A stretch of DNA of 64,000 nt from Clostridia bacterium (lineage in GTDB: Bacteria > Bacillota > Clostridia > Oscillospirales > CAG-272). Made by a program: the position numbers and the translations under genes. Shown here piece by piece: positions 13,608-63,497 of the stretch; within the stretch, counting starts at the first letter, position 1; the number at the start of each line of letters is the position of its first letter. The stretch spans positions 18,593 through 82,592 of the forward strand of contig JAGALA010000034.1 of the NCBI GenBank assembly GCA_017625935.1, in the 5' to 3' direction. The notes under the pieces are model-generated. The model searched no databases, was not told where the DNA came from, and saw only the letters and a list, made by a program, of their open reading frames with translations.

Positions 13608-13622
13608 TTTTAATCCTTCCAA

Positions 13623-13948: not shown

Positions 13949-15334
13949 TTATGTAGATGAAATTTCTCTTATTATACTGTTAATCTCGTATTTGAAGGAA
14001 GAATCGTTCTCCATCGTTTCCTTAACAAAGTTTTCACTTGAAATAACGGTTGTGCGGTCACGGTTTATCGCCTTGCCTATTTGTGATTGAGATAGGTTTG
14101 TGCATTGGCGCGCAACGTAAACGCAAATATGTCTTGGAATTGCAATTTCCTTGTTTCTCTTCGTTGACAAAATATCGTCACGCGAGATACCGAACTTTTT
14201 GGAAACCGCCAAAATGATATCGTCCATCTTCTTTTGATCGGAGTCCTTCTTCGGCACAAACTCGTTAATCGAGCTTTTTACCCTTTCCATGCTGATGTCC
14301 CCACCCTCAAGGAGCTGAATTGCACCGAGCTTTTTGATAACTCCCTCAAGCTGTCTTATCGACGAGGTCACGTTTTCTGCAAGATAGCTTATGATGTCAC
14401 TTGAAATCTGAAGGTGATTTAGGAGTGCCTTTTGCTGTAAAATCGCACATCTTAAATCATAGTCGGGGAGCTGAATATCAACGATAAGACCTGCCATAAA
14501 TCTTGTACGAAGGCGATCCTCAAGCGATCTCATTTCGTGCGGGGGACGGTCAGAGGTGAAAATCATTTGCTTGTTTGCGTCGTAAATTGCATTGAAGGTG
14601 TTGAAAAACTCCTCCTGAAGTGATTCCTTACCTGCAACGAAGTGAATATCGTCGATAAGCAAAACATCCGCATCTCTGTACTTATTTTTGAATTCGTCCG
14701 TTGAGTGCTTTCTTATTGCAGTAAAGAGCTGATTTGCAAATTCCTCACCCTTTACGTAAACGATTTTCTTGTTTGGATAGCCAGCTAAAATTCTGTTTAC
14801 GATAGCGTAAAGCAAGTGCGTTTTGCCGACACCGCTCGGACCGTAAATAAAGAGTGGGTTATAGTCCTTTTTGCTAAAGCCGTCAAAGTTCTGACTTGCA
14901 ACCGCAACCGCCGCTGAGTTTGCAAACTTGTTTGAAGCACCGACAACGAAGTTTTCAAAGGTATATTCCGAGCGGAAGCTGTCTTGTGCGCTCGGCACAG
15001 GTGTCACTGTTGATGCTACACTGCTTTGTATAGGTGATGGCTGCATCTCCTTTAAAGAGAGGTCAACCTCGCCGTGCTCGGATGAATAAATAACAACGGA
15101 TGGCTCAAAGCCCAAAATTTCATTTAGCTTGTCCGCCATTGAGATAGCAAAGCGCTGCTGAATAATTTTCTTTTTTAAGTCAGTCGGGGAAACGAAAATT
15201 GCCTCGTTTTCATCAAGAGATGCAAGCTTAAGGTCGCCAAACCATAAATTCACCGCAGTTGACGAGTTGTCCTGAAGCATCATTTCAACAAGCATTGAGC
15301 GAATGCTTTCAAGGTCAAGAGAATTAAAATTCAT
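13949..15334 (-). CDS. dnaA: Chromosomal replication initiator DnaA
   Basis: The AAA+ Walker A motif is GPSGVGKTH and the C-terminal DnaA-box-binding domain is present. The start was chosen at MNFNSLD (ATG at 15334), which is preceded by AAAGGAG. Confidence 0.96.
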   Translation of the reverse strand: MNFNSLDLESIRSMLVEMMLQDNSSTAVNLWFGDLKLASLDENEAIFVSPTDLKKKIIQQRFAISMADKLNEILGFEPSVVIYSSEHGEVDLSLKEMQPSPIQSSVASTVTPVPSAQDSFRSEYTFENFVVGASNKFANSAAVAVASQNFDGFSKKDYNPLFIYGPSGVGKTHLLYAIVNRILAGYPNKKIVYVKGEEFANQLFTAIRKHSTDEFKNKYRDADVLLIDDIHFVAGKESLQEEFFNTFNAIYDANKQMIFTSDRPPHEMRSLEDRLRTRFMAGLIVDIQLPDYDLRCAILQQKALLNHLQISSDIISYLAENVTSSIRQLEGVIKKLGAIQLLEGGDISMERVKSSINEFVPKKDSDQKKMDDIILAVSKKFGISRDDILSTKRNKEIAIPRHICVYVARQCTNLSQSQIGKAINRDRTTVISSENFVKETMENDSSFKYEINSIIREISST

Positions 15335-15620
15335 TAAAGCTCCTTTCACACTCACACGCGCACGTATAGCGCACGCGCGAGAAATTAAAAGCGCAAAAAT
15401 CGTGAAAAATTGCGCCTAATATAATTATAGATATAAATATAGTTATATATAGTATAACATAGGTGTGGAAAACTGTCAAGAAAATTTGAAAAATTTCTTC
15501 TTTATTATATATATTTTTCAACAGTACTCGTGGAAAAGGTTGAAAAATATTCATTTTTTGAATGAATTGTTCAGAAAAAATGAATAGAATTTCGTTCATA
15601 AATTGTGTATTTTGGTACAT
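15335..15620. other. oriC, upstream-of-dnaA part, plus the dnaA promoter region
   Basis: Box-like sites are tgtggaaaa (15464-15472), cgtggaaaa and tttttcaaca. The region is very AT-rich (ataattatagatataaatatagttatatatag). Confidence 0.65.
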
Positions 15621-15677
15621 TAAAAAAATAAAAAAAGAGCAAAATTTAACACTAATTTAACATTAAATTCTGCTCTT
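15621..15677 (-). terminator. Rho-independent terminator (minus strand)
   Basis: The stem is aagagcaaaattt / aaattctgctctt. On the minus strand it is followed by a long U-run (plus strand aaaaaaataaaaaaa). It lies downstream of the 15909-17192 gene and of the hairpin array. Confidence 0.7.
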
Positions 15678-15691
15678 ATTAGATTTTTGAC

Positions 15692-15900
15692 ACGCAATGC
15701 TTGCTCAAAATGACGAAGTAAATTCATGTCTAAAAGACAATTCATGTTGCACCGCAACAATTCATGGCAAAGTCAATTCATGCAACACGTTGCAATTCAT
15801 GTGCTTAGAGCACAATTTATGAAGCCCCGCTTCAATTTATGACGTTAGTCAATTCATGTTTCATATAAACAATTCATGACCGCAGGTCAATTCATTCAAC
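15692..15900. repeat. Mini-hairpin tandem array A (about 10 units, linker CAATTCATG / CAATTTATG)
   Basis: CAATT[C/T]ATG starts at 15738, 15758, 15774, 15793, 15813, 15833, 15850, 15870 and 15888, with aattcatg at 15721. The spacers are short palindromes, for example ttgcaccgcaa, caacacgttg, aagccccgctt, accgcaggt. Confidence 0.9.
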
Positions 15901-15908
15901 TCCGCTGA

Positions 15909-17192
15909 CTACTTTCCAAGCATAATTTTTATAATTTCCTTATCGGTTCCGCTCATTCCGACAGAGGCAAGGCGTCCGACGTTTTTGATTGTTTTTTCAA
16001 CGCCCTTTGTTACAATTCCCTCGCCTGAGTAGAATTGGTGGCCGCTTTTCGCCATCTCGTAGCCCATTATACCAGCTTCAACCGCCATTGAAATTTTAGC
16101 CGCGCACGAGGATTTTGCGCCGTCGCAAATAGTGCCCGATAAAATTGCAACCGCATTGACAAGAGTGTGTGAAATTTCGTAGTATCTGCCGCCGTGAAGA
16201 TAGCAAATGCCACAGCCCGCGCCAACACCTGCCGAAATAGCGCCGCAATATGCGGAAAGACAGCCGATGCCTGTTTTTTGGTGGATTGTAATTAAGTCTG
16301 AAACGATAAGTGCACGCAAAAGCTCCTCTTTTGTAGAGCCGAGCTTCTCGGCATATACGCAAAGCGGAACCGATGCGGTAATTCCCTGGTTGCCGCTGCC
16401 CGAAATTATACAAACGGGAAGCTCACAGCCGTTCATACGTGCGTCCGAGCCTGATGCCGCTAAGGCACGCGCCAAAACGCGCACGTCGTCACCCCTACTA
16501 AGATATAGTGTGCGGCCGATTGATGCGCCAAAATCGCCTGAAATTCCCTCTTTTGCTATTGCCATGTTGTATTCGATTTGCTTTTCCAAAATAGGTGAAA
16601 GCTCGTCAAGGTTGACAGTTTCTGCAAACTCTAAAATTTCCTCTACGTTAAGTGAGGAGCGGTCGGTTGCTTCCTTCTCAACAATATCGTCGGGAGACTG
16701 ATATCTTAGTGTTACGTCCTCTCCGTTTAAGCATGCCTCGACTAAATTTGTGTGGCGCTTAAGAAGATGCGCGCTTGCACTTTGACTGCCTAAAAAGCCC
16801 TCAATGTAAATTTCAAACGGGCTCGATGAATCAATTTCATATATTTCAATGCTTGCACTATTCTGAAAATCGCGTATTTTAGACACGTCCTCGGGTAAAA
16901 TTTCCGAAAGAACCTCTAATTTTTTGTGTGGGGACGCTGAAATAATACCTGCGCAAACGGCAGAATTAATACCGTGCATACCGCCTGTTTTTGGCACAAT
17001 AACGCTTTTTACGTTCTTTATTATGTTTCCGCTAAGTCCTATTTTTATCTCATTCGGATAAGCACCGAGCGCGTGAGAAATTATAGACGCGGCATACGCT
17101 ATCGCAATAGGCTCGGTACAGCCCATAGCGGGGATTAATTCCTCTTTCAGTATATTTGTATAGGCAGCTGCTTTTTCTTTTGTTAAAGCCAT
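15909..17192 (-). CDS. UPF0597 family protein (L-cysteine desulfidase / YhaM-like)
   Basis: The protein is 427 aa. The N-terminal MGCTEPIAIAYAA motif and the Gly/Ala-rich C-terminal half are typical of the serine-dehydratase-alpha-like UPF0597 family. Confidence 0.7.
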   Translation of the reverse strand: MALTKEKAAAYTNILKEELIPAMGCTEPIAIAYAASIISHALGAYPNEIKIGLSGNIIKNVKSVIVPKTGGMHGINSAVCAGIISASPHKKLEVLSEILPEDVSKIRDFQNSASIEIYEIDSSSPFEIYIEGFLGSQSASAHLLKRHTNLVEACLNGEDVTLRYQSPDDIVEKEATDRSSLNVEEILEFAETVNLDELSPILEKQIEYNMAIAKEGISGDFGASIGRTLYLSRGDDVRVLARALAASGSDARMNGCELPVCIISGSGNQGITASVPLCVYAEKLGSTKEELLRALIVSDLITIHQKTGIGCLSAYCGAISAGVGAGCGICYLHGGRYYEISHTLVNAVAILSGTICDGAKSSCAAKISMAVEAGIMGYEMAKSGHQFYSGEGIVTKGVEKTIKNVGRLASVGMSGTDKEIIKIMLGK

Positions 17193-17291
17193 ATTTTTTC
17201 CTTTTTAACCAGCTTTGTCAGTTGATTTTATAAATAATTTTTTGAAAAACAGACACAGGGTGCCTTTTTTTATAATTTTGGACAATAATTA

Positions 17292-18530
17292 TTAAATGTT
17301 CTTTCCGTCAACAGTTACGTTCTTAGCTCCGTCTGTATAAAGAAGATCGCCTGTTTTAAACGGTGCTTCAAAAATATCGGGCACGTTTGGCTGAATATCC
17401 ATTTTGCCGTAGTAATATGGATGCGTGTCGCCCTTTTCATACTTAAACGAGCAATTCTCTATCTTAACTCCGTCAAGGTTTTCTCCGTCACCGACAACTA
17501 TTGATGGGTTTTCCTCGACAAACGAGCAATTCTTGATTTCAATGTTTTTAATTTGACCCGTGGTATTCTTGGCGCAGATAACAAAGCCCTCGCCCTTTCC
17601 CCACCACCAGCCGGCGTGAATTTGAGTTTTAGCTCTTACGTTTTCAATTTTGATGTTTTCAACCACTCCGTTGTCGCCTGTAAAGATTGAAATTGCGCGG
17701 TTAGAGGGTAAAATTTCAATGTTTTTAATTGTCGCGTTTCTAACCTTGCTGTAAAGGTGACCGAAGCGAATTGCAGCCGAGCGCGAGGACATAAGACAGT
17801 TTGAAATTTCCATATTTTCGCACACTCCCTCGGTGTTTGTGATGCACGTTGCCGCAAAGCAATCGTCACCGCAGAGGAATGTTGAGTCACGCACAACGAT
17901 GTTTCTCGATGCTGAAAAATGAACGCCGTCATTGTTTGCAATACGGTTGTGGTTGTCAACGTAGCAGCGCTCAAAAACGATATTCTCACAGTTTGAGAAT
18001 GTAAAGGTCCAGCAAGGGGAGTTGAAAATTTGAAGGTCGTGAATATGTATATTTTTGCAGTTGTTAAAGAAAATAGGCTGAGTCGGACGAGCAATTTTTT
18101 CGTCAGGTCCGATAACCGTTTGCTCCTCATATTTCAGGGTCAAATTTTCATCGCGCATAAATTCGGGCGAGCCGCAGGTGAAGTTTGCAAACGCATCACC
18201 GCTTAAAATAATCTTACCTCCGCCGTACATTTCAATGTTGTCCGAGTCAAGCGCGTATATGAGCGAAATTGTCTTTACCATTTCGTTATGATAAAATTCA
18301 TTAACGTAGTAGTGATTTAAGTTACGTGAGCCGCAAAGCTCCGTACCCTTTTCAATATAAACCTTAATGTCGCCCTTTAATCTGAGTGTGCCCGAGAGAA
18401 AAATTCCCTTGCCGTCAAAAACAAGCGTATCGCCCGCCTCACACGCGTTAATTGCATTTTGAATAGCTACCGTGTCAAGCGTAGCACCGTCACCAATTGC
18501 ACCGAAATCTCTTACGTTTACGTTTTTCAT
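17292..18530 (-). CDS. Glycoside hydrolase family 28 (polygalacturonase-like, right-handed beta-helix)
   Basis: The N-terminus is VRDFGAIGDGATLDT. The GH28 catalytic motifs NNDGVHF, GDDCFA and RFGH are present. Confidence 0.8.
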   Translation of the reverse strand: MKNVNVRDFGAIGDGATLDTVAIQNAINACEAGDTLVFDGKGIFLSGTLRLKGDIKVYIEKGTELCGSRNLNHYYVNEFYHNEMVKTISLIYALDSDNIEMYGGGKIILSGDAFANFTCGSPEFMRDENLTLKYEEQTVIGPDEKIARPTQPIFFNNCKNIHIHDLQIFNSPCWTFTFSNCENIVFERCYVDNHNRIANNDGVHFSASRNIVVRDSTFLCGDDCFAATCITNTEGVCENMEISNCLMSSRSAAIRFGHLYSKVRNATIKNIEILPSNRAISIFTGDNGVVENIKIENVRAKTQIHAGWWWGKGEGFVICAKNTTGQIKNIEIKNCSFVEENPSIVVGDGENLDGVKIENCSFKYEKGDTHPYYYGKMDIQPNVPDIFEAPFKTGDLLYTDGAKNVTVDGKNI

Positions 18531-18555
18531 AATTATCTCCGTTAAATAAAATTTG

Positions 18556-19164
18556 TTAAATTAAATCTTCAGTTTTATATGATTTATAGCCCTCATAAAA
18601 ATAGCTGTTGTCAATGATCTTCATAAATATCTCGCGGTCATTTATCTTATCTGTCAATGCATTTTTGATTACGTGCTTAATTTCAATGTCGCGCACAGGG
18701 CTTCTTTCCATTGCCAAAAGGTAGTCCTCCTTGTCAACAAGAGACCAGTCAACAACGTAGCCAAGCTCCTTTTTGAGCATTAAATCAAGCCAAATGCGTG
18801 TGCTTCTGCCGTTACCCTCACGAAAAGGATGAGCAATGTTCATTTCAACGTATTTTTCAATGATTTCATCGAAGCTTGACTGCTTCATTTTGTCGATATT
18901 TTTCAATGATTCATTAAGATACATAAGCGGTGCAAAGCGAAAATTGCCTTTTGAAATATTCACCTTGCGAATTTCGCCTGCAAAACCGTAAATATCGCTA
19001 AAAAGATATTTGTGAATTTTAGACAAGGAGTCAAACGTGCCGCTTTCGAGCTTATCTAAAAAACCGCTTTCGTAAATCTCAAGCGCACGCTTTTTGGTTA
19101 TTTTTTCTTCAACATCTGCAAGCTCCGCCGAGCTTTCAATACCTAATTTATTTTCAAGCGCCAT
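18556..19164 (-). CDS. fic: Fic-family protein (adenylyltransferase type, class III-like)
   Basis: The Fic motif is HPFREGNGRSTR. The C-terminal SYFYEG matches the (S/T)xxxE(G/N) autoinhibitory motif. Confidence 0.85.
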   Translation of the reverse strand: MALENKLGIESSAELADVEEKITKKRALEIYESGFLDKLESGTFDSLSKIHKYLFSDIYGFAGEIRKVNISKGNFRFAPLMYLNESLKNIDKMKQSSFDEIIEKYVEMNIAHPFREGNGRSTRIWLDLMLKKELGYVVDWSLVDKEDYLLAMERSPVRDIEIKHVIKNALTDKINDREIFMKIIDNSYFYEGYKSYKTEDLI

Positions 19165-19261
19165 AATTTTGCCTCCCCATCACATAATTATCTAATTTAT
19201 ATTATATCATTAAATAATATAAAAAGCAAGAAAAAACCGAGGTAAAAGCCTCGGTATTAAA

Positions 19262-19657
19262 TTATTTATGTTTTTGATTTGGTATTTTATTCCCGTTTTC
19301 ATCAAAGTTTTTCTTTAACATTATTTCCGTTGGAATAACGGGTACTATCATAGGAATAAATTCTAAAAATGTTAAAACAAGTCCTACGTAACTGATAACC
19401 GTCGTACTTTCATTTATAAGAAATAACATCGGGATAGAAAAAATGGGTAAAGAAACTAAACCTAAAATAAGCCAAAGCTTGCCAAAAAGCTTGTGAGAAT
19501 ATTCCCACGTTTCCTTGCTTGCCATTGATTTTTCGGTTCTGTAACCCGAAAATGTATTAATATTTTTCGGCGGATTTTTAATATAAATTGCTCCAAAAAT
19601 AATCATAGAAAGTGGAATTAAAAGAACCATTATAAGCATATAAATCCAAAATCCCAT
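19262..19657 (-). CDS. SdpI/YhfL-family membrane protein
   Basis: The protein has 4 TM helices and the motif GYRTEKSMASKETWEYSHKLFGKLW. The start was chosen at the ATG at 19657 (MGFWIYM), which has an AGAGGTGA RBS. Confidence 0.65.
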   Translation of the reverse strand: MGFWIYMLIMVLLIPLSMIIFGAIYIKNPPKNINTFSGYRTEKSMASKETWEYSHKLFGKLWLILGLVSLPIFSIPMLFLINESTTVISYVGLVLTFLEFIPMIVPVIPTEIMLKKNFDENGNKIPNQKHK

Positions 19658-19786
19658 AAAATCACCTCTTAATGATATTATAATATATCTATTTACCAAA
19701 ATCAACATATTTATAAAATTGGTAAATAAAGAACACCTTTCTGCACAAGGCACGCCACAAGTGTTTCCATTGGTGAAATCATTATA

Positions 19787-20008
19787 TTATTTGTCAAGCT
19801 TTTTTGGCACATCAATAATTCCTGCCAAATAATCAAGTGAAACGTTATAAAACTGTGCGAGGATAATTGCACGGCTGAACGGAAGCTCTCTTTTTCCACT
19901 TTCATATGTGCTGTAATATTGATATGTCGTATTTAACACCTCTGCGACTTGTGCTTGTGTTAGGTCTCTGTCTTCTCTTAAATTTCTTAATCTTTTATTG
20001 TAGTTCAT
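19787..20008 (-). CDS. XRE-family helix-turn-helix regulator (cassette 1)
   Basis: The protein is 73 aa. The HTH_3-type core is LTQAQVAEVLNTTYQYYSTYESGKRELP. It is a paralog of the protein at 34000-34227. Confidence 0.85.
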   Translation of the reverse strand: MNYNKRLRNLREDRDLTQAQVAEVLNTTYQYYSTYESGKRELPFSRAIILAQFYNVSLDYLAGIIDVPKKLDK

Positions 20009-20150
20009 ATAATCACCTCATAAGAATATTACCACATATGATTAGTCAATAATTAAAAATTAATCACAAGTGATTAAAAAATACTTGACAAAAATGAAAA
20101 TGATATATATACTATTATTAATCATATATGGTTAAAAAGAGGTGAAAAAT

Positions 20151-20417
20151 ATGAAAAAAATTATTGAAAATCTATGGTACGGAAATATAGATCCGTGTGG
20201 TGATTATGTAAAAAATACAGATGAATTAAATGAGTTAAGAAAAAAACGTACTGATTTATACGAAAAGCTGTTAGCGGTATTAAATGAAAAAGAGAAAAAG
20301 CTACTTGATGAATACGAAGAATGTAATATCGAGATATTTGCAATACACGAAAAGGAATTATTTGAATATTCCTTTAGCTTAGGGTTTAACCTTGCAATAG
20401 AAATACTAACGAAATAA
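20151..20417 (+). CDS. Small helical protein partnered with the XRE regulator (cassette 1)
   Basis: The protein is 88 aa, starts with LWYGNIDP and is divergent from the XRE gene. The RBS is aagaggtga. It is a paralog of 34337-34606, with a shared ...E.EECxIE...F..G...A pattern. Confidence 0.65.
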   Translation: MKKIIENLWYGNIDPCGDYVKNTDELNELRKKRTDLYEKLLAVLNEKEKKLLDEYEECNIEIFAIHEKELFEYSFSLGFNLAIEILTK

Positions 20418-20421
20418 AAAG

Positions 20422-20455
20422 CCTTCCCCTTTGCTTGGAGGGGAAGGTGGATTTT
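20422..20455 (+). terminator. Stem-loop terminator
   Basis: The stem ccttcccct / aggggaagg is followed by a short T-rich tract. Confidence 0.55.
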
Positions 20456-20501
20456 ACGAAGTAAAAGACGGATGAGGTGTAGCCTTTATAAAAATGAATT
20501 T

Positions 20502-22379
20502 TTATTTACTCTGTAAGTATATGATTAAAACCGAAATATCGGCAGGGGAAACGCCCGAGATGCGTGATGCCTGACCGAGAGTTAATGGCTTTACCTTATT
20601 TAGCTTTTGCACCGCCTCAATACGAAGACCCTTGACAGTTGAATAGTCAAGGTCGGGGTCGAGTGGCTTTGACTCCATTTTTTCAGCCCTTGCAACCTCG
20701 TTTAATTGCTTCTTTACATAGCCGTCGTATTTTATGTCCGTTTGCGCGGTGAAAACAACGCTTTTTGGCAAATTAGCCCTACCTGTGTCTAAGTTTTCAA
20801 ACATAGAGAGGTCAAGCTGAGGCCTTTTTATAAGGTCGGCAAGTGAAATTGGCGTTGAAATCGGCGTTGTTCCCGATGCTTCAATTATCGAATTTACCTC
20901 GTCTGTTGGGTGAATTATAACCTTTGAAAGACGGTTCTTTTCGTCATTAATTTGGTTTCTGCGCTTTTCAAAATGCGCCCATTGACTGTCACTCACGAGT
21001 CCAACCTCTCGTCCTATGGGTGTTAGGCGAAGGTCGGCGTTGTCTTGGCGAAGGAGCAAGCGGTATTCACTGCGTGAGGTCATCATACGGTACGGCTCGT
21101 GCGTGCCCTTTGTAACAAGATCGTCAATTAGCGTGCCGATATAGGACGAGGAGCGCGGAAGAATCATTGGCTCACGTCCCTTTATTTTAAGTGCGGCGTT
21201 GATGCCTGCGACAAGTCCCTGTGCTGCCGCCTCCTCATAGCCCGAGGTGCCGTTAAACTGTCCTGCGCCGTAAAGACCCGAAATTTTCTTGTATTCGAGT
21301 GTGGCAAGCAGCTCCTGTGGGTCTGTGCAATCGTACTCAATTGCGTAGGCGTATCTCATTACCTTTGCGTTTTCAAAGCCCGAGAGAGAGTGAAGCATCT
21401 CCATTTGAACGTCAATTGGCATTGAGGTTGAAAAGCCCTGAAGGTACATTTCCTTAGTGTCAGCGCCCGTTGGCTCAAGGAACAGCTGGTGGCACTCCTT
21501 GTCTGCAAAGCGCACGATTTTGTCCTCAATTGATGGGCAATAGCGCGGACCTGTGCCGTGGATGTTTCCCGAGTACATCGCGCTTCTTTTTATGTTGTCC
21601 TTTATGATTTTGTGTGTTTCAAGGTTTGTGTATGCAATATAGCAGGGCACCTGCTCCTTTATCGGATAAGTGCTTTCATCAGTTTGCCAAGAAAATGGGA
21701 AGGAGCCAAGCTCTCCCTCTTGAATTTCAAGCTTGGAGTAGTCAATTGAATCTGCGTGGATTCTTGCAGGAGTGCCCGTTTTGAAGCGCATCATCGAAAT
21801 CCCCTCGCGAAGGAGCGCATCTGTCAAGAACGAAGCGTGCATAAGTGAATCGGGTCCTGAGTGATAGCAAATATCTCCCGTATGTACCGTTGCATTTAAG
21901 TAAGTTCCCGTGCATAAAATAGCCGCACGGCAAGAGTATTCCTCGCCGAGGCGTGTTACAACCTTGTCAATACGCTTATTTTCCCCCTCGCCCACGGTTT
22001 TTATATCGCAAATTTCCGCTTGAACGAGGCGAAGGTTTGGTGTGTTTTCCAAAACACCCTTCATAATAGAGCGGTATTTCAGTCTGTCGGCTTGAATTCT
22101 CTTTGAGTAAACCGCCGCACCCTTGCCAAGATTTAAGGTTCTTGCTTGCAGAGTAACCAAATCCGCGCTTTTTCCCATTTCACCGCCGAGAGCGTCAATT
22201 TCATAAACCAAATGGCCCTTGGCAGTGCCGCCAATCGACGGATTGCAGGGCAAATTAGCAACGGCATCGAGCGACATTGTAAATAAAACGGTGTTCAGTC
22301 CCATTCTCGCACATGCAAGCGCGGCTTCAATTCCCGCGTGGCCTGCGCCGACAACGGCAACGTCACAATAGTTTGACAT
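20502..22379 (-). CDS. mnmG: tRNA uridine 5-carboxymethylaminomethyl modification enzyme MnmG (GidA)
   Basis: The protein is 625 aa. The FAD-binding N-terminus is VVGAGHAGIEAA and the canonical GidA core is present. Confidence 0.95.
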   Translation of the reverse strand: MSNYCDVAVVGAGHAGIEAALACARMGLNTVLFTMSLDAVANLPCNPSIGGTAKGHLVYEIDALGGEMGKSADLVTLQARTLNLGKGAAVYSKRIQADRLKYRSIMKGVLENTPNLRLVQAEICDIKTVGEGENKRIDKVVTRLGEEYSCRAAILCTGTYLNATVHTGDICYHSGPDSLMHASFLTDALLREGISMMRFKTGTPARIHADSIDYSKLEIQEGELGSFPFSWQTDESTYPIKEQVPCYIAYTNLETHKIIKDNIKRSAMYSGNIHGTGPRYCPSIEDKIVRFADKECHQLFLEPTGADTKEMYLQGFSTSMPIDVQMEMLHSLSGFENAKVMRYAYAIEYDCTDPQELLATLEYKKISGLYGAGQFNGTSGYEEAAAQGLVAGINAALKIKGREPMILPRSSSYIGTLIDDLVTKGTHEPYRMMTSRSEYRLLLRQDNADLRLTPIGREVGLVSDSQWAHFEKRRNQINDEKNRLSKVIIHPTDEVNSIIEASGTTPISTPISLADLIKRPQLDLSMFENLDTGRANLPKSVVFTAQTDIKYDGYVKKQLNEVARAEKMESKPLDPDLDYSTVKGLRIEAVQKLNKVKPLTLGQASRISGVSPADISVLIIYLQSK

Positions 22380-22395
22380 AATTACTCCTTTCTAT

Positions 22396-22598
22396 GCACA
22401 ACTGCGTTGTGATTCCATACAGTAAAACACACTGATTCCATACCGCATTCGGACGGATTCCATACACGAATATGGCGTGATTACATACAACCTGCGGTTG
22501 ATTAAATGTTTACGCAAGTAAACAATTCATGTCAGGCACGCCTGACAATTCATGACAGCTATACTGTCAATTTATGATACCGTAGGTATCAATTCATT
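22396..22598. repeat. Mini-hairpin tandem array B (9 units, linkers GATTCCATAC to GATTAAATG to CAATTCATG)
   Basis: Linkers start at 22411, 22434, 22456, 22478, 22499, 22523, 22546, 22568 and 22590. Palindromic spacers include tttacgcaagtaaa, tcaggcacgcctga, acagctatactgt, ataccgtaggtat and aacctgcggtt. Confidence 0.9.
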
Positions 22599-23081
22599 TT
22601 ATTTATGATATTTCGTACCGTTTACAATAGAAAGTGAACGGTAGGCTGTTTCGTATAAAATAACGCGTAAAAGCTGATGCGGAAACGTGAGCTTAGATAC
22701 CGACAGCTTAAAGTCCGCCCTTTGCTTTACCGATGGGGCAAGCCCAAAGGATGATCCGATGATAAAGCAAATTTCGCTCTTTCCGAGCGTGGTTATTTCG
22801 TTTATTTTTGAGGCAAGCTCCTCGCTTGAAAGCTGCTTACCCTCAACGCACATAGCGATAACGTACGATTTATTTGAGATTTTCTCAAATATCGATTTAG
22901 CTTCCTTTTCAAGCGCTAAATCAATTTGGCTCTGGCTTGGATTTTCGGGCAGCTTTTCTTCCTTGAGTTCAATTTCCTCAACCCTTGCCCAAGCGCCGAG
23001 CCGCTTTTTATATTCGTCAGCCGCTGCGCGAAGATAGCCTTCCTTTAGGTTTCCTGTTGCAATAATTTTTATGTTTAGCAT
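22599..23081 (-). CDS. rlmH: 23S rRNA (pseudouridine1915-N3)-methyltransferase RlmH
   Basis: The protein is 160 aa with the SPOUT fold pattern (IGSSFGL...LSVSKLTFPHQL). Confidence 0.88.
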   Translation of the reverse strand: MLNIKIIATGNLKEGYLRAAADEYKKRLGAWARVEEIELKEEKLPENPSQSQIDLALEKEAKSIFEKISNKSYVIAMCVEGKQLSSEELASKINEITTLGKSEICFIIGSSFGLAPSVKQRADFKLSVSKLTFPHQLLRVILYETAYRSLSIVNGTKYHK

Positions 23082-23084
23082 TAT

Positions 23085-23135
23085 TCTTCAATCAATTTTT
23101 CAGCCGCCGATAAAATTGCCAATTTTCCGCTTTAA
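23085..23135 (-). pseudogene. Orphan duplicated 3' end of the PLP-enzyme gene (encodes SGKLAILSAAEKLIEE*)
   Basis: The minus-strand translation matches the C-terminus SGKIAILHAAENLIKE* of the 23190-24434 gene. Nucleotide identity is about 75%. The fragment's stop codon (23082-23084) abuts the rlmH ATG. Confidence 0.7.
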
Positions 23136-23189
23136 CCGGCTCCTTTGTGTAAAGGGAGCTGTCAGCTTTGCTGACTGAGGGATTGATTA

Positions 23190-24434
23190 TTACTCCTTAA
23201 TCAAATTTTCGGCAGCGTGTAAAATAGCAATTTTACCGCTTTCGTATGTGAGCGAGCCTTGGAAAAATGCGGTGTACGGTGGGCGCACAGGACCGTCACA
23301 GGAAAGCTCTATCGATGAGCCTTGAGTAAACGCGCCTGCCGCCATAATTACCTCATCCTGATAGCCCGGCATTGCCCAAGGCATTGGCGTTACGTATGAG
23401 TCAACAGGGCTTGCTGCCTGTATTCCCTGGCAGAATTTTATAAGCCCGTCAGCGTAGCCAAACTTAACGGTTTGGATAATGTCCGAGCGCATCTCACTGT
23501 ATTTTGGATAAACGTCAAAGCCGAGTGCTTCAAGCACGTATGCGGCAAAATGTGCAGTCTTTATTGCTTGCGCAACAACGTGAGGAGCTAAGAAAAAGCC
23601 CTTGAAAAGATTTCTGTTTTGACCCAAGGTTGCGCCAACCTCACAGCCTGTGCCAACTGAGGTAAGGCGGTATGAGGCAAGCTCAACTGCCCTTTTTGTT
23701 CCCGCAATATATCCGCCGCTTTCGGCAATTCCTCCACCCGGATTTTTTATAAGTGAGCCAATAATCATATCTGCGCCAACGTGTGTAGGCTCGCGCTCCT
23801 CGCAAAATTCGCCGTAGCAGTTGTCAACCACGACGTAAGCACCGCTTCTTTTGTGAACAAAATCGCAAATTTCGCCTATTTCGTCAATAGTCAAGGTCGG
23901 TCGGTTTAAGTAGCCCTTTGAGCGCTGAATGAACACAACCTTAACGCGCTCGCCGTACTCGTTCAGCTTTTCTTCAATTCCGTCAAAGTCGATTTTGTCG
24001 TTCTTAAAATTCACTTGGTCGTACTTTACGCCAAAGTCGGCAAGTGAGCCGTCACCGTTTGCACCGTTAAGGCCGATAACCTCGCAAAGAGTATCATACG
24101 GCTCGTTGGTAACGGAAAGAAGGACGTCATTTGGACGGAGCAAGCCGAAAAGACCTATCGTTAAAGCGGTTGTGCCGTTTGGAATTGTATGGCGCACAAA
24201 CGCTGCCTCAGCACCGAAAACGTCAGCGTAAACCTTGTCGAGCGTATCTCTGCCGATATCGTCGTAGCCATAGCCCGTAGTACCGGAAAACATACTGTCG
24301 CTGACTCTATGCTCACGGAAAAATTCAAGCACGCGCGCGGTGTTTTTATATGATGTTTCGTCTATTTTTTTATAAATATCGCTAAGCGCGGCCTCTGCCT
24401 CACTTGCAATTTTAAGAAGTCTTTCTGAAATCAT
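23190..24434 (-). CDS. PLP-dependent enzyme, aluminium-resistance / YnbB (Cys/Met-metabolism lyase-like) family
   Basis: The protein is 414 aa. The N-terminus ...FSGTTGYGYDDIGRDTLD... is typical of this family. The RBS is aaggag. Confidence 0.65.
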   Translation of the reverse strand: MISERLLKIASEAEAALSDIYKKIDETSYKNTARVLEFFREHRVSDSMFSGTTGYGYDDIGRDTLDKVYADVFGAEAAFVRHTIPNGTTALTIGLFGLLRPNDVLLSVTNEPYDTLCEVIGLNGANGDGSLADFGVKYDQVNFKNDKIDFDGIEEKLNEYGERVKVVFIQRSKGYLNRPTLTIDEIGEICDFVHKRSGAYVVVDNCYGEFCEEREPTHVGADMIIGSLIKNPGGGIAESGGYIAGTKRAVELASYRLTSVGTGCEVGATLGQNRNLFKGFFLAPHVVAQAIKTAHFAAYVLEALGFDVYPKYSEMRSDIIQTVKFGYADGLIKFCQGIQAASPVDSYVTPMPWAMPGYQDEVIMAAGAFTQGSSIELSCDGPVRPPYTAFFQGSLTYESGKIAILHAAENLIKE

Positions 24435-24496
24435 AAATTCTCCTTATTTAGCAAACACAGGTCAAGGTTTTTGCCCTGCCTGTGTCTGTTTTTCTA

Positions 24497-26317
24497 TTAT
24501 TTTAACTTTGCGTATGCCTTAAGTCTTAACTGAGTATTAAGAATTTTCTTTCTTAAGCGGAGCGACTTTGGAGTAACCTCAATAAGCTCGTCCTCTGCAA
24601 TATACTCAATTGCCTGCTCAAGTGACATTTGTCTTGGCGGAGTTAAGATGAGCGCCTCGTCCGCACCCTTTGAACGAATAGCGGTTAAGTGCTTTTTCTT
24701 ACATACGTTGACAACGATATCCTCCATTTTCGGACATTCGCCAACAATCATTCCCTCATAAACGGGAGTTTGAACGCCAATGAACATAGCACCTCTGTCC
24801 TGTGTATTGAAAAGACCGTATGAGGTTGCCTCTCCGTCCTCGGAAGCAATAAGCGAGCCTGTAAATCTTGTGATAACGTCGCCCTTGAAAGGCTGATAGC
24901 CGTCAAATAAGGTGTTTAAGATACCCTCGCCCTTGGTGTCTGTCATAAATTCACTTCTGTAGCCGAACAGACATCTTGACGGAATTAAATATTCAAGACG
25001 CGTTCTTGTGCCTGCCTTGTTCATTTCAAGCAGCTCGCCCTTACGTGAGCCAAGCTTTTGAACAACCGCGCCAACGCTTTCGTCAGGCACGTCAATTGAA
25101 ACTCTTTCCATCGGCTCGTGTAAAGTGCCGTCGATTGTTTTATAAAGCACACGCGGAGTTGAGCAGCAAAGCTCGTAGCCCTCACGGCGCATAGTTTCGA
25201 TAAGAATTGATAAGTGCATTTCGCCTCTGCCCGCAACCTTAAAGGAGTCGGTTGTGTCGCCATCCGTTACGCGGAGGGAAACGTCCTTAAGTGTTTCCTT
25301 GTAAAGGCGGTCACGGATTTGACGGGAGGTAACAAACTTGCCCTCCTTGCCTGCAAACGGGCTGTCGTTTACGCTGAAGGTCATTTCCATTGTCGGCTCT
25401 GAAACCTTAACGAATTCAAGCGGCTCAGGGTTGTTAACCGAGCAAATTGTATCACCTATTGAAAGCTCCTCAACGCCCGAGAAGCAAACGATATCGCCGA
25501 CCGTTGCTGTTTGTGCGGGCTGACGTGAAAGACCCTCAAACTGATAGATTGAAACAATCTTTGCACGTCTTGGGGCTGCATCGGAGTGATAGTTGCAAAC
25601 GGAAACCTCGCCGTTTACCTTAAGAGTACCGCGCTCAATTCTACCGATACCTATCTTACCAACGTACTCGTTATAGTCGATTGCAGAAACGAGAAGCTGT
25701 AAATCCTCATCCTCCTCGCCCTCGGGCTCGGGGATATAGTCGATAATTGTATCGAGAAGCGGCTTTAAGTCAGTGCCGGGAACGTCGGGTGAGAATGAGG
25801 CTGTGCCTGCTCTGCCCGAGCAGAAAAGCATTGGTGAGTCAAGCTGCTCATCAGTTGCGTTAAGGTCGATTAGAAGCTCCAAAACCTCGTCGATAACCTC
25901 GTGCACACGTGCATCGGGGCGGTCGATTTTGTTAACGACAACTATTATTCTGTGGTTAAGCTCCATTGCCTTGCGAAGCACGAAGCGTGTTTGAGGCATC
26001 GGACCCTCTGCCGCGTCAACGAGCAAAATAACGCCGTTAACCATCTTAAGGATTCTTTCAACCTCACCGCCAAAGTCCGCGTGGCCGGGGGTGTCGATTA
26101 TGTTTATTTTCTTATCGCCGTAGCGAATAGCTGTATTTTTTGCCAAGATTGTAATGCCGCGCTCCTTTTCGAGTGCGTTTGAGTCCATTACACGGTCGGT
26201 AGTGGATTGATTTTCGTGGTATGCGCCGCCCTGCTCCAAAAGTCCGTCAACGAGTGTTGTTTTACCGTGGTCAACGTGGGCAATGATTGCAACGTTTCTT
26301 AAATCTTCTCTAAGCAT
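24497..26317 (-). CDS. typA: Translational GTPase TypA/BipA
   Basis: The G1 motif is AHVDHGKTT, the G3 motif is DTPGHADF and the G4 motif is NKID. The protein is 606 aa. Confidence 0.95.
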
Positions 26318-26436
26318 TTCATCCGTCCTTTTTTATATTGAAAAATTTAGCGTGCCTATTATAGCACACATTTTTCTAAAATAAAAGACTTTTTTATAAA
26401 AAAATTAAATTTTCATAAAATCAACACAAAAGCATA

Positions 26437-26545
26437 CTCACTGAGGGTGAGATTCCATACAGAACAAAGTACTGATTCCATTCACGGTGAACCGTAATTC
26501 CATACACATAAATGTGTGATTCCATACAACCTTCGGTTGATTTAG
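26437..26545. repeat. Mini-hairpin tandem array C (5 units, linker [G/A]ATTCCAT[A/T]C)
   Basis: Linkers start at 26451, 26474, 26496, 26518 and 26538 (degenerate). Spacers are tcactgagggtga, acggtgaaccgt, acataaatgtgt and aaccttcggtt. Confidence 0.85.
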
Positions 26546-26547
26546 CC

Positions 26548-26633
26548 GTAGGGTAAGATATTATCTTCCCGCGTATCAAGCAGATGTTAATTAAATCGCA
26601 TTCGCGTTTGTAGGGGAGGGGCTTGCTCCTCCC
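26548..26633 (+). repeat. Two GTAGGG-plus-hairpin REP-like elements
   Basis: The two elements are gtagggtaagatattatcttccc (26548-26570) and gtaggggaggggcttgctcctccc (26610-26633). Confidence 0.7.
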
Positions 26634-26713
26634 GCCTTTCGGATTAAGTCCTGACCTTGTCAGGATGAAGTCGCTTCGCGGTTATATTACCTTCCCTTAC
26701 AAAATCAAAAGGT

Positions 26714-26750
26714 TGATAAAAATCCCTCCTTGAAATACCAAAGAGGGATT
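26714..26750 (-). terminator. Rho-independent terminator (minus strand)
   Basis: The stem is aatccctc / gagggatt. On the minus strand it is followed by TTTTTAT. Confidence 0.65.
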
Positions 26751-26756
26751 GAATTA

Positions 26757-27716
26757 TTATTTTACAGGTTCAAAAACAACGGATTTTACTACGTCTAAGT
26801 AGATTTTTCCATCTTCGCTTGGAGATACGCGTTTTGTGTTTTCGTTTTCGTCATAAACCAAAATATCTGAGTCACTTTCAATTAAAATAGTGAGGGGAGT
26901 GTCTAAAATTGCACTTGGCGTGTCGCTGTTTACGAGAATTTCCGCCTTTAATTTTCCGTCCTGCTCACTCACTTGAAGCGTGCTGTTTTCGTATTTTCTA
27001 AGATATGAGGCAACCTCGTCAAACGAGCCCGTCCAAATTTTACCGCCGCGTGCGCGCTCGGCAAGATAATCACATTCCACCTTAAACTGCTCCGCATTTT
27101 GTGAGTGGAAAACGTCCTCGTCCTTGTGGGTGATCCAGTGGTTCATTTGGACGCCCCAGCCACCCTCACTTATTGTTTTGTCAATATAATCGGTATAGTA
27201 TTTCAAGTCCTTTGCAAGCATAGCGGTTAAGCAGTTTACGTCAAGCCAATTGATTTTTCCGGGCTGGTTTACACCGTCTCCACCCGCACGGCAAGCAATA
27301 TAATGCTCGGCAAGTAGGGCTGTTCCCTCCTCGTCACGCGCGCCGCCTGCAAAAATAAAGGTGTTTACCTCCTCGCCCGGGAACATCTCGCGCAGCTTTG
27401 CTTGAGCACCCTCGGCGTCCGCCTTTCTTCTCTCATACGGAGTTGAGGAGCAAAACGCAATATCGTGTCCAATAGTGTGTGAGGCAATATCAAAATAGTT
27501 AGCTTCGATAGCCTCGCGCCACATATTAATTAAGCGCTCGTGCATAAAAGCAACGGTAATTCCAACGGTTGCTTTAATCTTAACGCCCGTTTTTTCGTAC
27601 ACGTCCTCAAACTTTTCGATTACCTCGCGCGTTGAATCATAGTAGCAGCCGTCGTCAAAGGTAAAGGAAAACGCACAGCCTGCACCGCCCTTGTATTTGC
27701 AAATTTCAATATTCAT
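26757..27716 (-). CDS. Polysaccharide deacetylase (NodB/CE4-like)
   Basis: The NodB-type motifs FTFDDG and SHTIGH are present. The start was chosen at MNIEICKYK (ATG at 27716). Confidence 0.7.
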   Translation of the reverse strand: MNIEICKYKGGAGCAFSFTFDDGCYYDSTREVIEKFEDVYEKTGVKIKATVGITVAFMHERLINMWREAIEANYFDIASHTIGHDIAFCSSTPYERRKADAEGAQAKLREMFPGEEVNTFIFAGGARDEEGTALLAEHYIACRAGGDGVNQPGKINWLDVNCLTAMLAKDLKYYTDYIDKTISEGGWGVQMNHWITHKDEDVFHSQNAEQFKVECDYLAERARGGKIWTGSFDEVASYLRKYENSTLQVSEQDGKLKAEILVNSDTPSAILDTPLTILIESDSDILVYDENENTKRVSPSEDGKIYLDVVKSVVFEPVK

Positions 27717-30881: not shown

Positions 30882-31643
30882 TCAGCCTGCAAGTGATGCC
30901 TCGATTTTAGAGATAAGAGCTGCTTTGGAAAGCGCGCCTTCCTTTGCATACGTAATTACGCCGTTTTCATCAATTATAATTGTGTATGGGTAGTAGCCGT
31001 TTCCACCGAAGGTCTCGTAGCATTCGTCAAAATAAACGTTGCCCTCGCCAAGATCCTCATCAGCCGCAAAGATGATATCTGAGTCGGCAAAATTGTTCTT
31101 TATATGGGAAACTGCACCTGTCGAAAAATTCTGTACTGAGTGGATTGCAACAATTGTAACGCTGTCCTTATATTCCGTTGCAACCTCGGAAAACTCGGGC
31201 AGCTCGCCAACGCACGGTGGACACCACGTGCCCCAAAAGTTAATTACCGTTACCTTGCCAAGCGCGCTTGGGTCAATGCATTCACCGCTTAATCCGTTTT
31301 CGTCAAAGGTTTCAACAAAGTAGCTTGGAAGCTTTTGACCGACCTGTGTGCCGATTTCATAGCTTTCCTCGGGTGGCTCGCTTGGATTTTCAACGTCGGT
31401 ATTGGTGTCGCCCTCACCGCTGCTTGTCGATGAGTCGCCTGTGCCCTCACCGTTGCTTGTCGATGAGTCGCCTGTGCCCTCGCCGCTGTCGGTTGAGGTT
31501 CCGCCTTGGCTGCCTGTATCCGTTGAGGTGTCGCCCTCATTCTTTTCGCTCTCCGTGTCTGTGGTTTGCGGTGTCGGCGTGCAGGAAGCAAGCAAAATGC
31601 ATGCAAAAATTATTAATAAAAGACTAAAAATTTTATTTTTCAT
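30882..31643 (-). CDS. Thioredoxin-fold thiol:disulfide oxidoreductase lipoprotein (TlpA/ResA-like)
   Basis: The lipobox is LLASC. The active site is WGTWCPPC. A low-complexity Gly/Ser/Thr/Asp linker is present. Confidence 0.8.
   Translation of the reverse strand: MKNKIFSLLLIIFACILLASCTPTPQTTDTESEKNEGDTSTDTGSQGGTSTDSGEGTGDSSTSNGEGTGDSSTSSGEGDTNTDVENPSEPPEESYEIGTQVGQKLPSYFVETFDENGLSGECIDPSALGKVTVINFWGTWCPPCVGELPEFSEVATEYKDSVTIVAIHSVQNFSTGAVSHIKNNFADSDIIFAADEDLGEGNVYFDECYETFGGNGYYPYTIIIDENGVITYAKEGALSKAALISKIEASLAG
31415..31480. repeat. 2 x 33-bp tandem repeat inside the TlpA-like gene (encodes GEGTGDSSTS[N/S])
   Basis: caccgctgcttgtcgatgagtcgcctgtgccct is repeated with a single mismatch. Confidence 0.9.
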
Positions 31644-36820: not shown

Positions 36821-37006
36821 GTTATGAAGCTCGCTTTGCTTGCCGTTATGAGCTTGCACAGCAAGCGTTATGATATGATTGCCTTGCTAACCTGTAACTT
36901 GGCGTAGCCAATCATAACAATGCGTAAGCATTTCATAACTCATAACTTGCCCGTAAGGGCAATCATAGTTTAGCGTGATACTCCGTTAAGAGTATCACGC
37001 TAAACG
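36821..37006. repeat. Mini-hairpin array D (GTTATGA units on the left, inverted TCATAAC units on the right)
   Basis: GTTATGA starts at 36821, 36845 and 36867. TCATAAC starts at 36912, 36933 and 36940. Hairpins are gcttgcacagcaagc, aatgcgtaagcatt, ttgcccgtaagggcaa and a 13-bp stem at 36971-37002. Confidence 0.8.
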
Positions 37007-44215: not shown

Positions 44216-44401
44216 TTGCACTTTTTCCACAAAAACATGGAAAATTTATGGAATTTTGAAGGTATTGTTTTTGGAAAAAGGTCAAATTATGGAATTTGTA
44301 ATTATGGAATTTTCAGATCGTGATTTTAGGATATGCAAAACTTTACAAACGATTTTAGTAATGCTATAATATTATAAACAAGCCAAATGCGAGGAGAGTA
44401 T

Positions 44402-63480: not shown

Positions 63481-63497
63481 AAAACGTGAGGGGGCGG

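Follow-up and report, generated by a model that had tools for sequence, protein, structure and literature searches.

The Rfam family Gut-1 (RF01706) is the only curated relative of the intergenic hairpin arrays that we describe here. Weinberg et al. (2010, PMC2864571) listed 43 representatives of Gut-1, from "human gut only", and rated the motif as "certainly" RNA and as not cis-regulatory; they reported neither a function nor a gene association. It resembles our arrays in its consecutive short hairpins, its covarying stems and the constant, purine-rich word between them, and both come from gut Clostridia-type metagenome sequence. However, Gut-1 was described as a stand-alone small RNA with a consensus of three hairpins, for which neither inverted pairing nor dispersed copies were described, whereas the arrays in the DNA studied here have up to 9-10 units, are intercistronic, and use several word classes per genome.

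REP elements are known as stabilizers of mRNA 3' ends. As described in textbooks, the REP and BIME repeats of Proteobacteria and their RAYT genes (REPINs) share many features with our arrays: hairpin repeats in intergenic spacers, often past stop codons; clustering into arrays and inverted doublets; repeats that far outnumber a small associated gene, which is itself flanked by repeats; and a repeat type that covaries with the clade of this gene. However, REPs have a conserved palindrome and variable linkers, and the arrays show the reverse. The partner of REPs is a Y1 transposase, whereas that of the arrays is a four-helix-bundle protein without known catalytic activity, and the host lineages differ (Proteobacteria as opposed to Firmicutes).

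The mode of action that we propose would also share its logic with the textbook cases of TRAP (11 GAG/UAG repeats) and CsrB/RsmZ (GGA motifs), in which many short single-stranded words serve a symmetric oligomer. The words are different, because only our type-B word contains GGA, and RNAs of the TRAP/CsrB type are single genes or leaders rather than dispersed repeats. Finally, the stable DNA mini-hairpin motif d(C-GNA-G), as in GCGAAGC and GCGNAGC/GCGNNAGC (PMC13037366), has the C-G closing pairs and G...A loops that are seen in units of our family, although d(GCGAAGC) and d(GCGNNAGC) represent a thermodynamic motif and not a genetic element.

In this report, we analyze array B (22396..22598, minus strand), which lies in the spacer between rlmH and mnmG of a Clostridia bacterium. 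Positions refer to the window, that is, the whole stretch of 64,000 nucleotides that was analyzed. We estimate at roughly 85% the probability that array B is a locus-specific copy of a dispersed intergenic repeat family with fast turnover in gut and rumen Clostridia. This widespread family, its relation to Gut-1 and its linkage to PF05635 genes are absent from the preliminary description of the locus.

Anatomy of the rlmH-mnmG array

The genes rlmH (SPOUT methyltransferase, PF02590; 22599..23081, minus strand) and mnmG/gidA (PF01134; 20502..22379, minus strand) flank a spacer of 219 bp (22380-22598). Array B extends from the first base after the rlmH stop codon, which abuts word 1, to a point 5 nt short of the mnmG Shine-Dalgarno sequence AAGGAG (22385..22390, minus strand); the mnmG start codon is at 22377-22379 on the same strand. 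The array comprises nine mini-hairpins and nine words, and reads AAUGAAUUG ... GUAUGGAAUC on the sense (minus) strand. Our parse into hairpins and words covers 22397-22598, with variable segments of 11-14 nt and conserved words of 9-10 nt. Written on the plus strand as hairpin / word, units 1 through 9 are CACAACTGCGTTGT / GATTCCATAC, AGTAAAACACACT / GATTCCATAC, CGCATTCGGACG / GATTCCATAC, ACGAATATGGCGT / GATTACATAC, AACCTGCGGTT / GATTAAATG, TTTACGCAAGTAAA / CAATTCATG, TCAGGCACGCCTGA / CAATTCATG, ACAGCTATACTGT / CAATTTATG, and ATACCGTAGGTAT / CAATTCATT. We refer to CAATTCATG as the type-A word and to GATTCCATAC as the type-B word, both as they appear on the plus strand.

Evidence for secondary structure was assessed by shuffling each variable segment in 5000 rounds. 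The stems of array B contain 36 Watson-Crick pairs, compared with 9.9 +/- 2.8 in shuffled segments (maximum 23), and none of the 5000 shuffles reached 36, which rules out a chance origin. Six hairpins are good, with 4-5 bp plus a fixed closing pair, and three are weak, with stems of 2-3 bp (AGT..ACT, CG..CG and ACG..CGT). Loops of the mini-hairpin DNA type account for only two of the nine (GCAA and GTA, plus strand). In the 64-kb window, ATTCCATA occurs 12 times, where 2.4 occurrences are expected. The preliminary description had proposed that nine stem-loop units fill the spacer and that their linker changes stepwise. Our coordinates agree with those given there, the stem pairs exceed shuffled expectation, and the plus-strand words indeed proceed as GATTCCATAC three times, GATTACATAC, GATTAAATG, CAATTCATG twice, CAATTTATG and CAATTCATT.

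Two arms in tandem, each with about five words, describe array B better than a single graded array does. Arm 1 (22509..22598, minus strand) has four hairpins and type-A words, which on the sense strand are AAUGAAUUG, CAUAAAUUG, CAUGAAUUG and CAUGAAUUG. The junction word between the arms is CAUUUAAUC (sense strand; 22500-22508). Arm 2 (22394..22499, minus strand) has five hairpins and type-B words, with sense-strand words GUAUGUAAUC, GUAUGGAAUC three times, and a truncated final GCAUA that merges into the mnmG Shine-Dalgarno sequence, which lies immediately 3' of the last hairpin and truncated word. This ending, in which a last hairpin is followed by a truncated word, a Shine-Dalgarno sequence and ATG, also occurs in loci L132, L137, L144, L158, L159, L175 and L179.

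The claim that the spacer has no terminator or obvious promoter agrees with a consensus scan of 22250-22750, which finds no promoter-like site; its three terminator-like matches are all array hairpins followed by a T-rich word. These hairpins do not qualify as intrinsic terminators, which call for a G+C-rich stem of at least 5 bp and a U-tract, since an AATTCAT/TTT word follows the hairpins and there is no real U-run. Because the spacer has no promoter-like site, it is plausible that rlmH and mnmG are cotranscribed across array B. Nonetheless, arrays may have a weak terminator-like role, because in the related locus L018 a five-word array occupies the site at which the window has a plain terminator.

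Several other classes of repeat were considered. CRISPR arrays have direct repeats of ~23-50 nt, nonpalindromic spacers of ~26-72 nt, and cas genes or a leader, whereas array B has repeats of 9-10 nt and self-complementary "spacers" of 11-14 nt. The sole match to an Rfam CRISPR repeat in the array slices scanned was to CRISPR-DR51, in another array of the window (array A; see below), and at 16 bits (E = 6.8), well under the gathering score of 45, this match is consistent with chance. REP/BIME-RAYT elements combine a conserved imperfect palindrome with a GTAG-type head, which recurs throughout the genome, with a Y1 transposase gene that the palindromes flank. Array B does not belong to them, as the palindromes all differ, only the linkers are conserved, and no transposase family is enriched near the arrays. 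Simple tandem duplication was rejected too: Tandem Repeats Finder reports nothing at array B, because the units share only the word.

The 219-bp spacer, or a variant of 217 bp, is found in nine independent gut-metagenome contigs, and array B is therefore not an assembly artifact. The variants differ by the exchange of one whole hairpin (CCGTCCGAATGCGG versus CCGCGCAAGCGG) and by three point changes.

A dispersed family with rapid turnover

Four arrays (A, B, C and D) are present in the 64-kb window, and they carry type-A, type-B and GTTATGA words, so that several word classes coexist in one genome. The words of array A (15720..15896, minus strand), ten in all, are of type A (CAATTCATG on the plus strand). 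The array starts 13 nt past the stop codon of a serine-dehydratase gene and is upstream of the DnaA-box region and dnaA. A link of the arrays to oriC was considered for this reason and was rejected, as relatives have the same boxes without the array. In array C (26438..26545, minus strand), whose position is 5' of the bipA promoter, type-B words (GATTCCATAC on the plus strand) join five hairpins. Arm 2 of array B and array C are identical at 76% of positions (89/117) and have the stems of units 1 and 4 in common, which suggests a common five-hairpin ancestor within this genome. Array D (36821..37005) is an inverted arm pair with a fourth word (GTTATGA ... TCATAAC); its hairpins include GCTTGC-ACA-GCAAGC, AATGC-GTAA-GCATT and TTGCCC-GTAA-GGGCAA, and a long terminal hairpin is located at 36961-37005. 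No tRNA or tmRNA was found in the window.

The preliminary description regarded the two linker types as variants of one system that can coexist within one array, and proposed to compare the spacer among relatives. Both types recur elsewhere in the window with the same architecture (CAATTCATG at 15720-15896 and GATTCCATAC at 26438-26545), and a classical inverted pair built on the type-B word is present in a metagenome-assembled genome (MAG) of Acutalibacteraceae (locus L121). Mixed or graded words within single arms are also seen in L184 and L191. As reported below, comparison with relatives reveals that both unit number and word type vary. The idea that array B might be a one-off event is refuted by the three additional arrays in the window and by the arrays in at least 113 Clostridia MAG stretches.

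These stretches were found by a pattern scan with three words, using one genome per species. The scan yielded at least 120 stretches with arrays of the CAATTCATG type, of which at least 113 are from Clostridia MAGs; about seven of the 120 stretches listed are not from gut or rumen Clostridia MAGs. Hosts include Oscillospiraceae, Acutalibacteraceae, Christensenellales, "Eubacteriales" and others. Copies are also present in IMG/VR viral contigs, but all five matches to type-B arrays in viral contigs proved to be unrelated coding repeats. We found nothing relevant in the literature on the word sequences or on "hairpin arrays".

An arm typically consists of about four variable, perfectly paired mini-hairpins, with stems of 3-6 bp and loops of 3-4 nt, joined by a linking word of 7-10 nt that is constant within a lineage. 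On the strand reading toward the adjacent gene, the words include AUGAAUU, UAUGGAAU, GUGAUAU, GUGAAAU, AUGAAAU, AGCUAAAUU and AGUUAUAUU. Arm size is sharply peaked, with exactly four full words in 180 of 236 arms among the loci listed. Unit length ranges from 14 to 26 nt. Two thirds of arms sit in divergent inverted pairs, often bounded by a longer hairpin. Such a pair has a left arm of the form AATGAATTG, hairpin, CATGAATTG, hairpin, CATGAATTG, hairpin, CATGAATTG; a center, AATTGCC..AATG; and a right arm of the form hairpin, CAATTCATG, hairpin, CAATTCATG, hairpin, CAATTCATT. Other arms, without a gene of their own, are scattered over other spacers, where they fill the interval from a stop codon to the Shine-Dalgarno sequence that comes next. 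Single arms between codirectional genes have no orientation bias (14 sense versus 11 antisense among the loci listed).

Among the CAATTCATG loci listed, 298 of 354 distinct inter-word segments have at least two stem pairs beyond the fixed G-C pair, compared with 25 after shuffling. The pair adjacent to the loop is 5'C-G3' in 214 of these 298 segments, and loops of the form G...A outnumber the complementary T...C form by 117 to 3. The dominant loops in these loci are GCA, GAA, GTA, GTAA, GCAA and GTCA, and many units are GCGAAGC, GCGTAGC, GCGCAGC, CCGAAGG or similar, with C-G closing pairs and G...A loops. Internal mismatches in stems are rare (10 G.T and 6 A.C in 342 units), and stems are otherwise almost all perfect Watson-Crick helices. 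These counts, 10 against 6, are uninformative as a guide to the functional strand.

RNAalifold pairs the outermost and innermost words of the two arms, as in a possible ladder of four-way junctions. However, the word columns in this pairing are invariant, and the deviant words in L110 and L147 are uncompensated in their nested partners. A leader peptide encoded through the right arm was rejected, since units whose length is not divisible by three leave no conserved reading frame.

Across the window and its relatives, the rlmH-mnmG spacer has lengths of 219, 217, 157, 182, 60 and 51 bp, with arrays of different words in three cases. Two relatives have array-free spacers (51 and 60 bp). In a third, the spacer of 157 bp has five hairpins, all with the type-B word, whose sequences bear no relation to those of the window. 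A fourth has a spacer of 182 bp and five hairpins with a different word, AGUGAUAUU. Among these relatives, the arm with the type-B word in this spacer is that of locus L132. Arrays A and C are missing from three syntenic 20-kb loci of relatives whose rlmH genes are 83-90% identical, and these loci retain the promoter and DnaA-box sequences around the missing arrays. The locus L018 that has an array in place of a terminator is ~86% identical to the window over an aligned stretch of 3.8 kb and 75-87% identical over other aligned pieces. Given the spacer differences among relatives, arrays are gained, lost and replaced quickly. The architecture is constant; the word, the hairpins and the presence or absence of an array change quickly.

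PF05635 genes and the relation to Gut-1

All-against-all clustering of open reading frames in the 120 listed loci identified only one family enriched beside type-A arrays, a PF05635 protein of ~115 amino acids (E = 5e-25; 13 of the 120 loci). No transposase or recombinase was enriched in this clustering (no HUH or tyrosine transposase, relaxase or integrase). PF05635 is the "23S rRNA intervening-sequence protein" family. To our knowledge, no function has been assigned to PF05635 proteins outside diversity-generating retroelements since their discovery inside 23S rRNA intervening sequences. The retroelement protein Avd is a four-helix-bundle barrel. PF05635 is homologous to Avd (PMC10053308), which is pentameric and positively charged; in a cryo-EM structure, an RNA stem-loop is in contact with all five Avd protomers, which hold flipped-out bases in the crevices between them (bioRxiv 10.1101/2023.10.23.563531).

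The Avd-RNA system thus resembles ours in that the partner protein is of the same superfamily (PF05635/cd16375), and the solved structure closest to the PF05635 proteins, PDB 2RLD, has five chains. However, the Avd ligand is one stem-loop of 11 bp and not an array of repeated words, and no reverse transcriptase, template repeat or variable repeat is near the arrays in the loci examined.

The linkage was also approached from the protein side. An alignment of ten PF05635 proteins led to 80 metagenome loci, of which 71 have at least three words of one class no more than 300 nt upstream of the PF05635 gene. Nearly all 80 have an inverted arm pair immediately upstream of this gene, whose ribosome-binding site directly follows the last word of the right arm, and in many of them another arm lies downstream and extends into the Shine-Dalgarno sequence of the next gene. 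With a strict detector of exact words, arrays were found in 32 of 50 distinct upstream regions and in none of 82 control windows. At least seven word classes occur upstream of PF05635 genes (ATGAATT, ATGAAAT, GCTAAAT, GTTATAT, GTGATAT, ATGATAT and GTGAAAT), and the class tracks the clade of the protein: in 35 of 42 cases, a protein and its nearest neighbor share the word, and protein identity is 69% within a word class versus 55.5% between classes. Common descent of the hosts might be enough to produce this covariation.

Upstream of the left arm, six loci (L126, L144, L116, L075, L086 and L015) have an extended -10 box followed by a 5' hairpin, and the arm pair is therefore the leader of the PF05635 mRNA, with a length of ~170 nt. 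In L144, the left arm is repeated exactly on both sides of a segment comprising the center, the right arm and the PF05635 gene, the kind of duplication that recombination or insertion leaves behind. The module of array and gene is located directly after tRNA genes of differing identity in L172, L185, L190, L191, L212 and L058, and in several other loci it follows the end of a RumA/RlmD-like gene.

Array B connects to these loci through its type-A word (CATGAATTG / CAATTCATG), which is identical to that of PF05635-leader arms in L098, L126, L110, L141-L160 and others. The single inverted pair found with the type-B word (L121) precedes an open reading frame of 16 codons and not an intact PF05635 gene. 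By tblastn, the 64-kb window has no PF05635 homolog, so that a partnership of arrays and protein is putative for this genome. The PF05635 proteins have a pI of 6.7-8.8, not the strong positive charge expected of an avid nucleic acid binder.

The same loci connect the family to Gut-1. In L191, where the left arm lies 5' of a PF05635 gene, the Gut-1 covariance model scores 59.1 bits on this arm, above the gathering score of 50; it matches more weakly both arms of L177 and the loci L184 and L171. All four loci are built exactly like type-A loci. By contrast, with L191 serving as the positive control, the model gives no match to the whole window at the gathering score, to 15200-26900 at E <= 5, or to 240-nt slices with arrays B and A at E <= 10, and no known RNA family in Rfam 15 accounts for the window arrays at gathering or lax thresholds. 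In form, array B nevertheless agrees with Gut-1, as it has nine consecutive variable hairpins, where at least three were sought, joined by a word of ~7 nt that resembles RUGRWAU. Its sense-strand words AUGAAUU and UAUGGAAU each match the Gut-1 word GUGAAAU at five of seven positions. The GUGAAAU orientation corresponds to the sense strand of rlmH and mnmG, so read-through transcription would yield it. In our best reading, array B belongs to a Gut-1-like class of dispersed repeats, of which it represents a new word-variant. Neither the link to PF05635 nor the wider picture of the family was found in the literature and databases searched.

Possible roles of the arrays

Because unit length varies from 14 to 26 nt, a regular presentation of words requires that the hairpins be folded out, and the array presumably acts as a single-stranded nucleic acid rather than as duplex DNA. 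The hairpins would be sequence-free spacers that hold each short word single-stranded and regularly presented, whatever the length of the hairpin. One arm could then be a multivalent ligand, most plausibly for a ring-shaped PF05635 oligomer, with about five words per pentamer, and the PF05635 protein might autoregulate through its own double-arm leader. We regard this protein-ligand mechanism as tentative, with the odds somewhat against it. Our data demonstrate how the arrays are built, that they form a family with rapid turnover, and that this family is linked to PF05635 and related to Gut-1; binding by the protein, its stoichiometry and any effect on mRNA are inferences. At the rlmH-mnmG locus, two tandem, sense-oriented arms would be transcribed with both genes as a structured, possibly protein-coated intercistronic spacer, which might shield the 3' end of rlmH and the 5' end of mnmG from exonucleases in a REP-like manner while leaving the mnmG ribosome-binding site free. 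The best explanation as a whole is a dispersed repeat copy with two tandem arms that forms a cotranscribed structured spacer and a multivalent ligand made of words, a combination to which we give even odds.

An extended version of this proposal is that arrays and stand-alone PF05635 proteins constitute an undescribed two-component system. One arm, with about five words and four hairpins, would wrap one pentamer, and protein and word would coevolve in lineage-specific pairs. The protein would autoregulate through the double-arm leader and also coat or regulate dozens of gene-less arms, or else aid their spread as RAYT does for REPINs. This extension is possible but rather unlikely to be correct in full.

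An RNA role is not secure, because single arms have no orientation bias, the stems of the family have nearly no G.U pairs, and the PF05635 proteins are near neutral. Both of the following alternatives are compatible with the PF05635 linkage and are serious rivals. The arrays might function as single-stranded or extruded DNA in replication, recombination or mobility, with transcription being incidental. The strand with the AATTCAT word would fold into very stable C-GNA-G or GNNA mini-hairpins, and an inverted pair would provide one such arm per strand, which an enzyme that binds DNA hairpins, for example, might recognize. The preference for G...A over T...C loops (117 versus 3) and for C-G closing pairs (214 of 298) fits mini-hairpin DNA (PMC13037366), and the strand with this preference is the one antisense to rlmH and mnmG. 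Near-absence of wobble pairs points the same way, as do the lack of orientation bias relative to flanking genes, which would not be expected of an RNA with a single working orientation, and the two-fold symmetric inverted pairs in every word class. Variation in unit length between 14 and 26 bp, which rules out phased binding to a duplex, would be harmless with extruded hairpins. Stems of 3-6 bp, however, are too short for unaided cruciform extrusion from duplex DNA. The conserved promoters and 5' hairpins also place the arm pair in PF05635 mRNA leaders, the genes near arrays show no enrichment of HUH or tyrosine transposases, relaxases or integrases, and Gut-1 was rated "certainly" RNA by its describers (PMC2864571). 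We consider a DNA-level function quite unlikely.

Alternatively, the arrays might be selfish or neutral repeats, similar to MITEs or REPINs, whose arms spread and decay in tolerant intergenic sites. PF05635 would then be cargo or a helper, the rlmH-mnmG copy would be useless to the host, and the hairpins would be kept perfect by template-switch correction of quasi-palindromes. Such a lifestyle would account for presence or absence and wholesale replacement between close relatives and strains, for copies that fill spacers exactly in any orientation, and for copies in IMG/VR viral contigs. It also fits the exact duplication of the left arm around the center, right arm and gene in L144, the modules after different tRNA genes in six loci, and the appearance of arm 2 and array C as diverged copies of one five-hairpin arm. 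However, no target-site duplications and no transposase were found, and copies within one genome differ in nearly all hairpin sequences, unlike recent bursts of MITEs. The word is invariant across Clostridia orders and arm size is fixed at four words, which argues for selection on the structure of the element, and within one pair family stems are kept while loops vary across different genomic contexts. We consider a purely selfish or neutral repeat unlikely. It is very improbable that array B evolved for this operon as a cis-regulator specific to mnmG or rlmH, such as an attenuator, thermosensor, ribosome standby site or processing site. Array B does end exactly at the mnmG ribosome-binding site, and some array is present in this spacer in three of five lineages; nevertheless, two close relatives have array-free spacers of 51 and 60 bp, the sequence offers no terminator/antiterminator alternative and no U-tract, and elements of this type next to unrelated genes, both here and at over 100 MAG loci, argue against gene specificity.

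At the rlmH-mnmG locus itself, the practical consequences are modest; close relatives dispense with the array there. For annotation, the arrays explain many spacers in gut Clostridia MAGs that are "empty" yet highly structured, and they carry a warning, in that the Rfam Gut-1 model recognizes only a small part of the family. The Gut-1 motif is one word-variant of a large modular family, characterized by a constant word, free hairpins, a fixed arm size, inverted pairs, rapid gain and loss, and more than one word in a genome. Gut-1 has been an orphan "certain RNA" since 2010, and the link to PF05635 makes both directly testable. If the two-component reading is true, it would provide a function for the Gut-1 RNA motif and for the PF05635 family outside diversity-generating retroelements.

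Duplication and spread of arms

The hairpin arrays consist of variable mini-hairpins separated by short constant words, and an arm typically carries four full words. Inverted pairs of arms often form the leader of a small Avd-like gene (PF05635). At one compared locus (L144, positions 1240-2010), a complete four-hairpin left arm is present as an exact second copy, such that the two copies flank the centre, the right arm and the PF05635 gene, and the second copy runs into the ribosome-binding site of the next gene. In some other PF05635 leaders the arrays are far longer and count 8 to 16 or more units (L176, 1-450; L155, 1240-1500; L156, 350-610). Some units in these long arrays are near-identical repeats, and arms are therefore able to expand by unit duplication. 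In one locus from a metagenome-assembled genome (L105, 690-3860), nearly the same four-word arm occupies each of four consecutive intergenic spacers, the main difference being one loop. These near-identical arms show local spread or homogenisation.

Other repeats and an insert in the window

An insert of roughly 150 bp (26546-26705) adjoins array C, the array upstream of the bipA promoter (26438-26545). Inverted repeats of about 20 nt lie at its two ends (GTAGGGTAAGATATTATCTTCCC ... GGTTATATTACCTTCCCTTAC), G+C-rich hairpins lie inside it, and it is missing in all three syntenic relatives. The insert looks like a MITE.

Upstream of an ORF starting at 44387, ATGGAATTT is present in three to four copies (44240-44315). 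These are direct copies without hairpins, and we place them outside the hairpin-array family; they look like protein-binding iterons. Tandem Repeats Finder also reported tandem repeats of 33, 9-36 and 25 bp (31410-31488, 52345-52446 and 63497-63580, respectively), which are unrelated to the hairpin arrays.

The dnaA region

Both dnaA (13949-15355) and a dnaN-like gene (12453-13622) are on the minus strand. DnaA-box-like TTTTCCACA and TGTGGAAAA motifs and AT-rich runs are abundant in the spacers flanking these genes (13623-15908). The region has a bipartite, oriC-like organisation and is kept in relatives. Yet cumulative GC skew, plotted along the window, does not turn until about 36-40 kb, and between 16 and 36 kb gene direction is toward dnaA.

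Genes preceding the arrays

Array pairs, whether or not the PF05635 gene accompanies them, occur directly downstream of tRNA genes (among L172, L185, L190, L191, L212, L058, L098 and L121), and these tRNA genes differ in identity (Val, Thr-Tyr, Arg, Ser-Ser). In a further subset, the pair comes after the 3' terminus of a gene for a RumA/RlmD-like 23S rRNA methyltransferase. The window has a parallel in the array that follows rlmH, likewise a 23S rRNA methyltransferase gene.

Some strains and relatives (L003, L004, L007, L135 and L140) carry, between the Met_gamma_lyase gene and rlmH, a gene encoding a 122-aa DUF559/MTES_1575 protein (Vsr-like endonuclease fold). It is missing from the window, and is a second presence/absence polymorphism, one gene from the rlmH-mnmG array (22396-22598).
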